DNA of 64,000 nucleotides, from contig CM075991.1 of assembly GCA_038087875.1 (NCBI GenBank), positions 2,914,001 to 2,978,000 on the forward strand. The letters run 5' to 3'. Position 1 is the stretch's first letter. The number at the start of each line of letters is the position of its first letter. Shown here one piece after another: positions 37,744 to 58,011 of the stretch. Both the position numbers and the translations under genes were made by a program. This DNA comes from Malacoraja senta. Lineage: Eukaryota. The notes beneath the pieces were generated by a model. It ran no database searches, had not been told where the DNA came from, and saw nothing but the letters and a program-made list of their open reading frames with translations.

Positions 37744-37926
37744 TAAGTGACGAAATGGGGCCCCAGCCAAAAGAAGGCACCTTCCGAAATGCACTCGAGT
37801 GTCAGTCTAAACTGTTGTGCTCAACATTTGTGAGTAGGTGTAGGCCTCAACTCATCACTTTCTGGGTGGAAAAAAATTGCACCTCAGGTTCCAATTAAAT
37901 CTTTTCCCTCTCACCTTAAACCTATG

Positions 37927-38478
37927 CAGGACTGGCAGCTTTCTGTAGACCTGGTGAAACAGCTGAAGTTCCCACAGCACATTGCCACGACCACTCTGAG
38001 GCCAGACATCCTCCTGGTCTCAGAGGCGACCAAAAACATTGTCTTGTTGGAAGTGACAGTGCCGTGGGAGGACCGTCTGGAGTAGACGGAGAAAATCAAG
38101 TATGAAGAGCTGGTCATAGACTGGCGTAAGAAGGGCTGGAAGGCAAGGTGTATGCCCATCGAGGTTGGCTGCAGAGGTTTTGCAGGGCAATCGCTCTACA
38201 AAGCCTTGAGTGCACTGGGCATCAACGGAATGGAGAGGAGAAGAGCCATCAAGAACACCACAGAGGCAGCGGAGAAGGCCTCGAGATGGCTCTGGATCAG
38301 GAGAGGAGGTCCATGAGGAGGAGCGAATGCCACCTGAACACAAGTCGTGGTCTGATCAACCACGGCTGGGTCACCTGGGTGAGGGTGTCTGATGTTGAAA
38401 GACCCGAAACACCCAATAACCCCATGTTATATCACTGATGATGTGTTCAGGAGCATCAATAGATGTCTTTTTATAAAA
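37927..38478 (+). mobile_element. 5'-truncated Hero-like (restriction-like endonuclease) non-LTR retrotransposon, inserted in a CR1 fragment
   Basis: The frame from 37930 reads DWQLSVDLVKQLKFPQHIATTTLRPDILLVSEATKNIVLLEVTVPWEDRLE*TEKIKYEELV...GWKARCMPIEVGCRGF...AAEKASRWLWIRR, a PD-(D/E)xK RLE domain with one stop. The flanks rejoin as CR1 'cttaaacctatg|tcctct'. Confidence 0.85.
38383..38448 (+). ncRNA. Candidate rearranged (non-circularly permuted) hammerhead ribozyme
   Basis: GGGUGU-C / GAAA-CACCC (stem III, 6 bp), UGAUGU / AUAUCA-CUGAUGA (stem I, 6 bp), GACCC / GUGUU (stem II, 4 of 5). All core nucleotides are present. Confidence 0.6.
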
Positions 38479-53020: not shown

Positions 53021-53338
53021 TCCAGCATTTTTGTCTACCCTCCCTCTACTTCCTTTCATGAAGCCAATTTTTCTATCCAGCTTTCTTCTGTTAGTAAAAT
53101 TTGAGAATTAGTAAAATATTCTATTCTACCCGTTGTATTTCTTCTTCCTCTAAAGTTGTCTCCAAAAATGTCCATTTTGTAGGGCCATTGATCTGATAAG
53201 TTGCGATATGCGTATGATAACCTTGTACACTTCTTCCCTCCTGCTTGTTACACTGCTTCGGGGCACAACAACAAAATAATGCTTTCTTTTTCCCAGGTTA
53301 AATATGAATTACTGATTGCAAGTTAAAGGAAAGACACC

Positions 53339-54030
53339 ATGGAAGATCCTTCAGAAATCATCCAGAAACTGCAACTTGCAGGCCAAGGCAGGGCGGAGCG
53401 AGAGGAACATTATCAGAGTATGAAAGTCCCCATAGTTGAGGAGGTTCTTAAAAATCTTCTGGAGGACTTGTCAACCGAAAACCTAAGGAGAGACAGAGGA
53501 TCAGTTGTGGGTGATGTAAAGGATTTGCTTTTACATGCTGACCCTCTCTGGCTTCTCAATCATTACCGTCAAGGTGAAACTCTGAACATTGTGCACTTGT
53601 ACATTGACCTGACCGTTTCTTTGACCCTGTACGCAGCACTGCCGCGGTGTGAGACTGACATTGGGGAGCTGCCCAACAGTGCTTATTCCACCATACCCGG
53701 CAGGGCGCAGAGTGTGGCCGAAACATTTCAGCTGCTCCTCAGTAAACTGTCGGTAAGGCCGCTGCAAGCCTCGTCCTCCAGCCCCGCCGAACTCTCGCCC
53801 GACTCGGTTTTGAATGCCATCTCGCCGCACCTGGTCATCTTCTGTGCCACGCACTGCCAGGAGAGGCCGTGGACCAACGCAGCGTCCCGGTTGGCTGCCG
53901 ACGAGCTGCTGGCTGCCACCGTGCAAGCATCCGGCTGCAAGACTGTGGTGGAACTCCTGTGTGGATCACAGGAGGAAGGACACGGGGCTCTGGCAATCGT
54001 GCTGCATCTGATGAAACCTCAGATGAACAA
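53339..54030 (+). CDS. TTI2: TELO2-interacting protein 2, first coding exon (exon begins 53297)
   Basis: Acceptor tttttcccag|53297, Kozak acaccATGG, 230-codon ORF MEDPSEIIQKL...HCQERPWT...LMKPQMN(K), donor AA|gtaagt. Splices in frame to clearly TTI2-like exons. Confidence 0.9.
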
Positions 54031-54059
54031 GTAAGTCAATGGTAGATATTCAGGGTTAG

Positions 54060-55052: not shown

Positions 55053-56504
55053 CATAGAAACATAGAAAATAGGTGCAGGAGGAGGCCATTCGGCCGTTCG
55101 AGCCAGCACCGCCATTCATTGTGATCATGGCTGATCGTCCCCTATCAATAACCCGTGCCTGCCTTCTCCCCATATCCCTTGACTCCACTAGCCCCTAGAG
55201 CTCTATCTAACTCTCTCTTAAATCCATCCAGCGCCTCTGTGGCAGGGAATTCCATAAATTCGCAACTCTCTGGGTGAAAACGTTTTTTCTCAACTGTCTT
55301 AAATGACCTCCCCTTTATTCCAAGACTGTGGCCCCTGGTTCTGGACTCGCCCAACATTGGGAACATTTTTCCTGCATCTAGCTTGTCCAGTCCTTTTATA
55401 ATTTTATATGTTTCTATAAGATACCCCCTCATCCTTCTAAACTCATGTTACTAAGTTCTCTGTCTCCTCCCTGTACTCCATCTCGTCATATTTCATGAGA
55501 CCCACATATGACAACTGTGTCTCCAAATGGTCACCTCCCTCTGATAGATCTTGTAGCTACTCCCACTTGAAGGAGAGGAGTAACTCACCAACTCACTGTA
55601 GATAACGCACCCGACTGCAAGTAGCATCAGTATGATGAGAGATTTGGTGTTGAATCTCCTTTGCTTTATAGCCAGAACATATAAGAGTACAGCACAGGTT
55701 ACAGACACTTTGGCCAACAATGTCTGTGCCAAACATGATGGCAAGCTAAATTAATCTCAACTGCCTGCACGTCATCCATATTCCTCCATACTCTGCATTT
55801 GCATATGCCTATCCAAAAGCCCCTTAAACATCACTTACTGTAAACACCAGTATTGTATCTGACTGCCCCAGGCACTCGCCAATTTTTGTGTTAAAAAAAA
55901 AAAATTGCCCCACATATAAATTTCCTCCTCTGACGTTAAAGTTATGCCCTCTAATCTTTGACATGTCCACCCTAGGAAAAAAAATCTAACCTTCTACCTA
56001 TCTATGGTCTCAATATTTTACGTACTAGGTTCTCCATCAACTTCCGAAGCTCCAGAGAAAACAATCCAAGTTTGTCCAAGCTCACCTGATAGTTAAAACC
56101 TTCCAATCTAGGCAAACTACTTGTGCACCCGTTCCAGAGCCCCCACATCCTTCCTGTAATGGAGTAACCAAAAGAGCACGCAATCCTCCAAATGTGGCCT
56201 AACCAAAGTCCTATAAAGCTGTAGCATGACTTCCTGACTCGTATGCCCAGTGCCACAACCGATGAGGGCAAGCATACCATTCTATCTACTTGTGTTGCCA
56301 CTTACAGGGTGTTTTGGAGCTAAGTCGCCTACAAATAATGAACCCGTGGGAATGTACGACGCTGCTGACAGGAAGCGCACACTCCCATCTTCCACAGCTC
56401 TTGGGTCTCACCCAAGGGCCTGCTACGTCTGCCACTCTTCCCTGCTTGTTTTCATTTACTGAACAGAGTGCTGGTAACTGCGTTGTGTGTGCAAACCTCC
56501 ACAG

Positions 56505-56691
56505 AAACACGTGGAAGTTGAACCCAGCCACGAAGCACGTGTTCCGGTGGCTGCTGCAGAGGGTGAGGAGACCCTGGCTGAGCGAGCACCTGGACACAGT
56601 GCTGCCACCATCCCTCCTCTTCTCCGACGACTACAGGACAGAGAATAAGATTCTGGGCGTGAGGTGTCTGCAGCACGTCATTGACAATGTG
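56505..56691 (+). CDS. TTI2: TTI2 coding exon 2
   Basis: acag|A AAC ACG TGG...AAT GTG|gtaggt. Translates NTWKLNPATKHVFRWLLQRVRRPWLSEHLDTVLPPSLLFSDDYRTENKILGVRCLQHVIDNV, matching TTI2 (WKxNPAxKHVFxW...SDDYxTENKILGVxCL). Confidence 0.95.
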
Positions 56692-58011
56692 GTAGGTGGA
56701 GGCCAGAGAGTGGCAATTACGCCAAGGGGGATGGGAGGGGTGGACATCACACCGGGACCAGTGCAGAGAGGTCTGATGTGGGTAAGGTGGCAGCATCGAG
56801 TGTGCTGCCCATGTCCTGTTGATATTCAACTGAAGCTCATGTCGGCCTGGTTTCTGGTGGATGAGAAAGAGGCCTGAAGTACAATTAATGTGAACGGGAG
56901 ATTGATGGTCAGTATGGACAGTGGGCTGAGGGCCTGTTTTAATGCTGTATCTCCAAACTAAGCTGAACTAATATGCAGGGATATGAATCACTTCCAGGCA
57001 GAAGAGATTAGTTTAACTTGGTTCTGGTACAGTATGAACAGCAGAGTTCCACTGAGGTTCACTCTCGCTGTTTGTGGGACCTCTGCAGATTTTCACCTGC
57101 TCTTGTCTGCAGAGCAGTAACTGTACTTGTAAACAAATTTGAAGCAGAGCAGCTTGTATTAAAATGCTGTATTCATGTTTTCTTTTAATATAAACTGAAG
57201 GGTAATCTACCTTCAATAATGTGGCACAAATAGTTCAGTACAGCCCAGGAACAGGCCTTCAGTCCACAATGTCCAGACATGATGTCTTTAAACTAATCAT
57301 ATTCCTGCATAGTTTAGAGATACAGCATGGAAACAGGCTCTTCGGCCCACCGAGTCCGCTCCCAACATCGATCGCCCATTCACGTCAATTCTATAGCATC
57401 CCACTTTCCCATACTCCCTACACACTAGGGACGATTTACAGAGGGCCAATTAGCCTACAAACACAAATGTCTTTGGTATGTGGGAGGAAACCAGAGCTCC
57501 CAGAGGAAACCCATTGGGGGGTCACAGGGAGAACGTGCAAACTCCACACAGACAGCACCCAAAGTCAGGATCAAACCCGGGTCTCTGATGCTGTGAGGCA
57601 GCGGCTCGCCATTTTCATGTGACTATCTGAAATCCTTTCAAATACCACTATCGTATCTGCCTCCTCCACCACCCCTAGCAGCCCATTCCAGGCTCTCACC
57701 ACTCTGTGTAAAACAAAAACGTCCCACACATCACCTTTCACCCCCTCTCACCGTAAAGCTGCCCCCTCTAGTCTTTTTGCCATCTATTTACTGTAGGAAA
57801 TGAGAAATATATTGTTTATACTTGGTTGGATGTTGGTGGCAATAGGCTGTAAAGATGACTACAGGGAACTGAACAGAGGGACTAAAATGTAAAGGTGGAT
57901 GAATTATAAGAGACCTTGTTGGGCCCAACAGTTTGGACTTTATTATATTTTGGTGTACAAGGCAGCGTGGATGTGTTTCTGTGCATCTAACAGCTCTGTG
58001 TTCTATTTCAG

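Follow-up and report, generated by a model that had tools for sequence, protein, structure and literature searches.

A hammerhead-type RNA in the tails of HERO/Zebulon-like retrotransposons with a core opened between A9 and G10.1, and a possible route through circular RNA

The 3' tail of a HERO/Zebulon-like retrotransposon in Malacoraja senta carries what appears, from a comparison of natural copies, to be a real, conserved hammerhead-type RNA with a topology outside the six described permutations, opened between A9 and G10.1. The evidence comes from comparing sequences: six helices covary, the letters of the core are kept, the pattern of a kink-turn is present, and insertions in partial tandem extend across the predicted cut. 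The invariance follows the rules of hammerhead catalysis letter by letter while the stems change freely, and the fold is probably an active, self-cleaving ribozyme. We propose that this opened fold likely cuts after C38389 and would re-join unit-length RNA into a circle, which the element's reverse transcriptase would then copy round; we put the probability of this reading at roughly 0.48.

The host element and its copies

The window (the whole stretch of 64,000 nucleotides that was analysed, to which all coordinates refer) contains a 5'-truncated family A copy (Table 1) that matches the final 560 nt of a near-complete copy at 93.9% identity; 1219 candidates for the tail were found in the M. 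senta genome. A Pfam search of the window's endonuclease fragment gave no match. RVT_1 is present in close protein relatives. Related proteins belong to reverse transcriptase elements of fishes, lancelets, and bivalves, and the best solved relatives of a family member's protein are R2 proteins. These matches and the open reading frame of family B point to a single ORF with a reverse transcriptase and a C-terminal restriction-like endonuclease. The family A protein is 60% identical to Q7T1J8 (Tetraodon) and 56% identical to Q76IN2 (Takifugu), which we take to be Zebulon and HEROFr, respectively. The host element therefore appears to be a HERO/Zebulon-like LINE, a name that rests on identity to these two pufferfish proteins. 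HERO is described, in the accessible part of PMC9004415, as a LINE clade with a restriction-like endonuclease.

The unit length of the element is ~3.6-4 kb, and the M. senta genome holds at least five families of it, with differing tail sequences. Family B is young, with a period of 3958 nt and an ORF of 1181 aa; intact 1181-aa ORFs of a young family, in copies mostly 99-100% identical, were seen at L208-L212 and L225 (e.g. G000:C7:33097500-33106500). Many of the best tail matches in the genome have common flanks and represent one amplified insertion of family A, which together with its flanks forms a tandem unit of ~5.5-5.9 kb on many small contigs (L002-L011, L015-L021, L023-L025, L029, L030, L032-L036). 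Many of these amplified copies have lost the loop palindrome described below, and some have lost one stem I base.

The window copy keeps every core letter. It departs from the commonest family A letters at 38373, 38418, 38425, 38430, and 38467, of which 38418 is the kink-turn G (G in 54 of 71 family A copies, A in the window), 38425 the P0 mismatch, and 38430 the G-U in stem I (C in 68/71, T in the window). This copy is a truncated relic and a poor substrate for cleavage tests.

The 5' untranslated region of the element contains a run of short hairpins with purine-rich loops, recognisably alike across families that are ~43-60% alike in protein. It was seen in L148 (minus strand, behind the junction), L043:3340-3480, L045:2490-2640, L046:1975-2120, L048:255-400, and behind the tail in L208, and may comprise protein-binding or translation-entry elements. 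Elsewhere in the window, open frames at 53327-54034 and 56266-56877 resemble host protein-coding exons, not repeats. Two bacterial genome records (L228, L229) hold contigs of 507 and 809 nt that encode pieces of the element without the tail, probably as contamination. A protein search of viral contigs returned no relative of the element; the motif pattern occurred in 116 stretches of viral contigs, and among the 80 listed one had weak stems I and III, which we took as chance.

Structure of the tail RNA

The first-pass annotation of this DNA, correct in all its letters and coordinates, had proposed that the 3' tail of this HERO-like retrotransposon carries a hammerhead whose strand order is a non-circular permutation, and this is supported. 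Chance does not account for the motif: one instance of the order cut-site strand, GAAA strand, CUGANGA, required to have 5-bp stems I and III, is present in the window, against 0/200 dinucleotide shuffles. An Rfam search of the window reported no hammerhead at E<=10, its matches being chance-level or microsatellite. The hammerhead had been placed 65 nt after the ORF stop, a distance counted from a premature stop at 38314-16; in L185, a copy with an intact end, the stop corresponds to 38335-37, within the fold.

Relatives were collected at 21 metagenome loci by protein alignment, not by motif. Ten of these loci have intact tails (with 11 motifs, as L048 has two), three have decayed tails with a damaged GAAA, one ends 7 nt past the cut, and seven are without a tail. 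We aligned 18 natural copies with MAFFT, covering both branches of the element's protein tree. L039, whose contig ends within the fold, was excluded, as were the three copies with decayed tails and any near-duplicate from the same family. The 18 invariant columns of this alignment comprise 14 hammerhead core letters, three kink-turn letters, and one in the first P0 pair. All 18 copies carry C3-U4-G5-A6-N7-G8-A9, G12-A13-A14, A15.1-U16.1, and H17, and the core letters are kept across branches of the protein tree down to 43% identity. The conservation expected earlier for CUGAUGA (38435-41), GAAA (38406-09), and the GUC triplet at the predicted cut (38387-89) is borne out for six of the seven CUGANGA letters, GAAA, G16.2, and U16.1, all invariant, with position 17 being C, A, or U. 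Every letter occurs at N7 (U 12, A 4, C 2, G 1; n = 19).

Six helices (Pc, Ph, II, P0, III, and I) coexist in the fold, and no base belongs to more than one of them. Over 18 related sequences, whose stretches were cut out with a parser favouring the proposed pairings so that the covariation test is not fully independent, 88.1% of 673 cells are paired and 33 of 38 pairs show two-sided changes; none of 500 shuffles equals this, and slid helices reach 37-42%. Since kin sequences can beat shuffles, we also counted coincident changes on the protein tree of 15 copies. This gave 8 coincident two-sided changes for stem III, 13 for stem I, and 9 for stem II, with 0/75, 2/75, and 1/75 leaves unpaired, respectively. 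RNAalifold recovers Pc, Ph, P0, and III unprompted.

Two of the three stems first drawn around the core stand and co-vary among relatives: stem III (38383-88 with 38409-14) has 6/6 pairs in the window and is 100% paired in relatives, and stem I (38390-95 with 38429-34) has 6/6 pairs including one G-U and is 97.6% paired. The stem II drawn between 38401-05 and 38443-47 is not kept. It can be drawn with 4/5 pairs but at +0.3 kcal/mol; 55.6% of its 90 cells are paired, its second pair holds in 1/18 copies, and 34/75 leaves of the protein tree are unpaired. In its place, 38401-05 pairs with the upstream strand 38368-72, at -7.1 kcal/mol and with 95.6% of cells paired, 26 double-change cells, and 0/500 shuffles equal to it; the first pair, G10.1-C11.1, is formed in 18/18 copies (G-C 15, G-U 3). 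A stem II starting directly after A9 was also tried and rejected, with 39/90 cells paired. The strand after A9, read earlier as one extra U followed by stem II, belongs to a 10-bp helix with 38333-42. The fold spans 38333-38451, so the transcript 38360-38460 suggested earlier for cleavage assays would leave out helix Pc and the greater part of hairpin Ph. The view that the UGAAA linker would tie stems I and II together is supported on paper (Table 1).

The chain of the junction has no spare bases: A9 leads into Pc, Pc into Ph, and Ph into G10.1, and C11.1 is followed by G12. The outer Ph pair is standard in 17/18 copies and the first Pc pair in 18/18. We infer that a four-helix junction bridges the break between A9 and G10.1, in which the core would stack upon stem II, and Pc upon Ph. 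Between stem III and its extension P0 lie a 3-nt bulge and tandem G-A and A-G pairs, the pattern of a kink-turn; the parser rewarded kink-turn letters, and A1n and A2b are nonetheless invariant in the MAFFT alignment. The pair adjoining the bulge is C-G in 19/19 copies, as in the kink-turn consensus. The 3b-3n rule for kink-turn folding in metal ions ('3b=C or 3n=G, not both'), as given in the accessible part of PMC4382518, is satisfied in 15/19 copies. On paper, linkers only a few bases long connect the far end of P0 to stems I and II, a reach that would require a sharp bend. The kink-turn would bend the extension of stem III back to the far ends of stems I and II.

Two further observations concern the upstream half of the fold. 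The Ph loop (38353-38358 in the window) is a 6-nt palindrome in 14/18 copies, with its two middle letters swapped together in 3, and resembles a dimerisation loop. In the 15 copies in which the stop codon could be placed, it lies 5-60 nt ahead of G10.1, within or just before Pc and Ph; terminating ribosomes might unfold the junction, sparing translated RNA from cutting.

Table 1. Features of the family A copy and its predicted tail fold (window coordinates)
Feature	Positions	Strand	Remarks
Family A copy, HERO/Zebulon-like non-LTR retrotransposon, 5'-truncated	37926 to ~38475	+	Endonuclease-domain end and 3' tail
Restriction-like endonuclease remnant, reading frame broken	37924-38337	+	Two premature stops; family stop 38335-37 (translation)
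Predicted closing helix Pc, 5' strand	38333-38342	+	Pairs with 38442-51; 10/10, -14.8 kcal/mol; double changes in 9/9 tested pairs
Hairpin Ph, fourth arm of predicted four-helix junction	38343-38367	+	Double changes in 7/8 pairs
Stem II 5' strand, G10.1 = 38368	38368-38372	+	Pairing and coincident changes
Helix P0 5' strand, stem III extension past the kink-turn	38374-38379	+	Pairs with 38421-26; 90.7% paired; double changes in 5/6 pairs
Kink-turn short strand (3n, G2n, A1n)	38380-38382	+	A1n invariant 18/18; G2n 18/19
Stem III strand with GUC triplet; cut predicted to follow C17 (38389)	38383-38389	+	G16.2, U16.1 invariant; position 17 C/A/U in 18 rows
Stem I strand	38390-38395	+	Pairs with 38429-34; double changes in 5/5 pairs; 13 coincident changes
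Linker between far ends of stems I and II	38396-38400	+	Unpaired, length varies in relatives
Stem II 3' strand (C11.1 = 38405), G12-A13-A14, stem III strand (A15.1 = 38409)	38401-38414	+	G12 to C15.2 invariant 18/18
Kink-turn long strand: 3-nt bulge, G1b (A in window), A2b, 3b	38415-38420	+	G1b-A1n 17/19; A2b-G2n 18/19
P0 3' strand, 2-nt linker, stem I 3' strand	38421-38434	+	Pairing; P0 mismatch at 38425 in window
CUGAUGA (C3 to A9)	38435-38441	+	Six letters invariant
Predicted closing helix Pc, 3' strand, directly after A9	38442-38451	+	First pair standard 18/18; helix predicted by RNAalifold

Relation to known hammerhead permutations

According to the accessible part of Eckert, Friedrich, Weinberg and Weinberg (2023; PMC10085705), three blocks assumed to be uninterruptible give six hammerhead orders. 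The order drawn in the first-pass annotation is their type SGC (HRIMA-1 and variants), which cleaves in vitro and during transcription and whose descriptor permits a U between A9 and G10.1; the SGC RNAs reported there come from metatranscriptomes, with none in genomes of known organisms. The SGC order (cut-site block, GAAA block, CUGANGA) is present in the tail RNA, the window core matches CUGAUGAUG of the published descriptor, and the descriptor matches at 38389/38435 when its stem II test is switched off. Both published SGC descriptors, in our own coding and checked by an internal control, matched 0/18 copies. In Eckert's block C, A9 and G10.1 are joined directly or by 1-2 extra bases; here G10.1 sits 73 nt upstream of A9, and the 'uninterruptible' block is thus broken. 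Because the strand after A9 lies in the 10-bp closing helix, the fold appears to be not type SGC but a further permutation.

The resemblance to type SGC, as far as the accessible part of PMC10085705 goes, extends to the strand order, the mutually crossing stems I, II, and III, the short I-II linker, and an extra helix that ties the far ends (SGC helix 'I', here P0); the geometric puzzle of how the far ends reach each other is also raised there for some SGC RNAs. The differences are that the 5' strand of stem II comes first here, whereas SGC has at most a bulged U at A9/G10.1; that SGC's free ends are here joined via the kink-turn, with the extra helices Pc and Ph forming a junction; and that the RNA lies in an autonomous animal retrotransposon. 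With P0 in the place of SGC helix 'I', it can be read as an SGC ribozyme whose ends have been joined and whose chain has been opened anew at A9/G10.1.

The literature searched, with most subscription journals outside it, held no report of this strand order, of any ribozyme linked to HERO or Zebulon, or of an active hammerhead in which A9 and G10.1 are unlinked. The nearest cases to such unlinking are the bulged U of the SGC descriptor and minizymes without helix II, which are less active according to the accessible part of PMC544870.

Insertion patterns

Beyond the cut, insertions of family A extend for ~83 nt and those of family B for ~210 nt, with the cut site intact, and C17 is retained in 70/71 family A copies; the copied RNA was therefore uncut or resealed there. 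Among 60 loci chosen by the start of the ORF, a set not selected for tail or 5' junction, 15 rows representing 11 places include the element's 5' start, and in 11/11 this start is fused to an upstream tail at one common junction. At 26 junction loci (including two duplicates, and collected with a query that required ~45 nt of tail), the upstream part starts downstream of the cut in 12 cases, by 17-47 nt, and ahead of it in 14, by 50-1071 nt; none begins at the cut. Among the junction loci (L149-L172), nine of 26 upstream stumps start 31-42 nt past the cut, a range that the query length favours; copying would first meet helices I and P0 there, and the fold may stall reverse transcriptase. In family B, 4/6 insertions have an upstream part, of up to ~2.4 kb, none of which begins at the cut, and the two halves of one insertion differ at 1/1760 columns. 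The link to tandem copies suggested by the first-pass annotation is thus supported, with partial tandem insertions running through the cut site; Zebulon, too, reportedly forms partial tandem arrays. Two ribozymes can lie in one transcription unit: 14/26 junction loci pass the upstream cut, and two ribozymes are present in 3/6 family B insertions.

In 10 of 12 insertions with both tails, the paired tails have 39 minor letters in common vs 11.1 expected from other insertions, and an insertion's own downstream tail ranked first in only 3/10 cases and last in one. At solo 3' ends, the next letters agree with the junction sequence above background for ~3 bases (T 30/50, C 19/30, and A 10/19 vs background 0.30, 0.19, and 0.31); this covers 50 solo ends, 10 more lacking an anchor.

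At the cut itself, 1 of 292 exact copies of the post-cut word begins there, a count that would miss starts after a chance C. Of 14 copies with a letter other than T after C17, 12 have substitutions, one a 1-nt deletion, and one a rearrangement, and none ended there. Two small deletions in 8 variant copies at the cut compare with 1/7 and 0/19 at two control bonds; as the control bonds look similar, we claim no enrichment of indels. No RNA dataset was listed as containing the family B stretch; one raw run and three contig sets gave 22 reads without a pile-up of molecule ends, which bears neither way on cleavage.

The metagenome locus L048 holds two different ribozyme variants (L048:73-215 and L048:3795-3937), one family's tail lying directly before the 5' end of another family's intact 1180-aa element. 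This arrangement fits jumps, recombination, or misassembly.

A circular template and its alternatives

These insertion patterns fit a template without fixed ends, of which a circle would be the simplest source. In the mechanism that we propose, the four-helix junction of the core, Pc, Ph, and stem II would hold A9 against G10.1, and the kink-turn would fold P0 back, bringing its far end together with those of stems I and II in a second junction, which would replace the usual loop I-loop II contact. The fold would then self-cleave after C38389. A transcript of a partial tandem would hold two ribozymes, and both cuts would free one unit, whose ends could re-pair through 27 bp (Pc 10, II 5, P0 6, III 6) and be ligated, either by the ribozyme or by a host ligase. 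The element protein is assumed to prime internally, within the circle, at a point beyond the sealed cut by ~83 nt in family A and by 210 nt in family B. Copying for less than one turn would leave 5'-truncated copies like that in the window, and copying for more than one turn would leave partial tandems; no other copies could give rise to a new circle. Given self-cleavage, we consider the release, re-pairing, and ligation of the unit and priming inside the circle somewhat better than an even bet; that the ribozyme makes a circular template is close to even. Against activity stands the absence, from the literature searched, of any active hammerhead with A9 and G10.1 unlinked. Against the circle, the shared letters of paired tails and the fixed junction also fit a linear tandem parent or a template jump on the same molecule, and an insertion's own tail came first in only 3/10 cases; against a single circle stands the foreign-family tail before the 5' end in L048; and the deletions at the cut, similar to those at control bonds, speak against a clear scar.

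A linear template copied from an active ribozyme is unlikely and would share the same evidence of fold and core. An upstream ribozyme would free the element RNA from the host transcript, as HDV-like ribozymes do for R2 (a precedent found in the accessible part of PMC6765202), and the downstream ribozyme would either be kept shut by the element protein or be nicked yet paired while reverse transcriptase jumps the nick, the cut products staying together through the 27 bp. The few small indels at the cut (L115, L243, L255, L256, L261) and the mixed tandem L048, which fits end-to-end jumps, agree with this. However, it predicts that 5' ends pile up at the cut, which is the case for 0/26 junction loci, 0/4 family B insertions, and 1/292 word copies, and the indels are not clearly above those at control bonds.

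R2 proteins bind structured 3' tails, and the fold might likewise be a non-catalytic docking structure for the element protein, hammerhead-shaped or hammerhead-derived, with tandems arising by template jumps or from tandem parents. The intact cut site of the insertions and the separation of A9 from G10.1 would both suit such a structure, which we rate a shade below the linear template; yet free variation at N7, C, A, or U at position 17, a paired G10.1 in 18/18 copies, and variable stems are what catalytic rules would demand.

The core might also form between two RNA molecules or tandem units, begun by loop-loop pairing of the Ph palindrome, in the manner of the small Penelope hammerheads, whose cleavage as dimers we take from a reference title. 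This is rather improbable: the palindrome and its co-swapped middle letters favour it, but the 4/18 copies without the palindrome keep the entire core, the kink-turn and short linkers would fit a one-molecule fold, and SGC ribozymes, whose stems I, II, and III cross in the same way, cleave while they are being transcribed (PMC10085705, accessible part). The first-drawn reading, a plain type-SGC hammerhead in which a bulged U and then stem II follow A9, matches the descriptor's core and has a first pair that can be drawn as G-C in 12/18 copies, but is very improbable given the poor pairing of that stem, the 10-bp covarying helix that occupies its strand, and the failure of the full descriptors.

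Significance and comparison with known systems

If the circular template holds, HERO/Zebulon elements would be autonomous LINEs that spread via circular RNA made by their own ribozyme, and that ribozyme would be a seventh hammerhead topology, a two-junction cage closed by a kink-turn and a would-be natural RNA ligase; we advance this wider proposal tentatively, at somewhat less than even odds. It would place a hammerhead in an autonomous LINE of the R2 group and offers a testable reason for partial tandems, namely rolling reverse transcription of a self-made circle. Pattern searches that assume CUGANGA and its stem II strand to be inseparable miss the whole class, and more such folds may hide in other RNAs. 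The proposal also bears on template choice and priming by R2-type proteins, which is relevant to gene-insertion tools, and a small module that cuts and pairs with itself would be a candidate tool for circularising RNA.

R2 elements also have a reverse transcriptase with a C-terminal restriction-like endonuclease and RNA processed by a ribozyme, processing being predicted here. The R2 ribozyme is HDV-like and lies at the 5' end, where it frees the element from rRNA, whereas the fold described here is hammerhead-type, belongs to the 3' tail, and has a cut site at which insertions do not begin. The accessible parts of PMC6765202 and PMC7650587 name no hammerhead in LINEs of the R2 group.

Penelope-like elements, as described in the accessible parts of PMC6765202 and PMC4209133, are likewise autonomous, form tandems or partial tandems, and carry a hammerhead in their repeated end. 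They encode a GIY-YIG endonuclease, and their hammerheads are small, classical, and reported to cleave as dimers, in contrast to the predicted multi-junction pseudoknot of ~120 nt found here.

Retrozymes provide a precedent for the circle. Plant retrozymes are modelled to make circles by double hammerhead cleavage (Cervera 2016, PMC4918200, accessible part), and retrozymes of both plants and metazoans (PMC7229834, accessible part) have two hammerheads per transcript; their circular RNA is modelled, as ours is inferred, and in their model, too, copies longer or shorter than one unit arise from the circle. Retrozymes are non-coding and non-autonomous, with classical type I or III hammerheads, whereas the elements described here encode a reverse transcriptase and endonuclease of their own.
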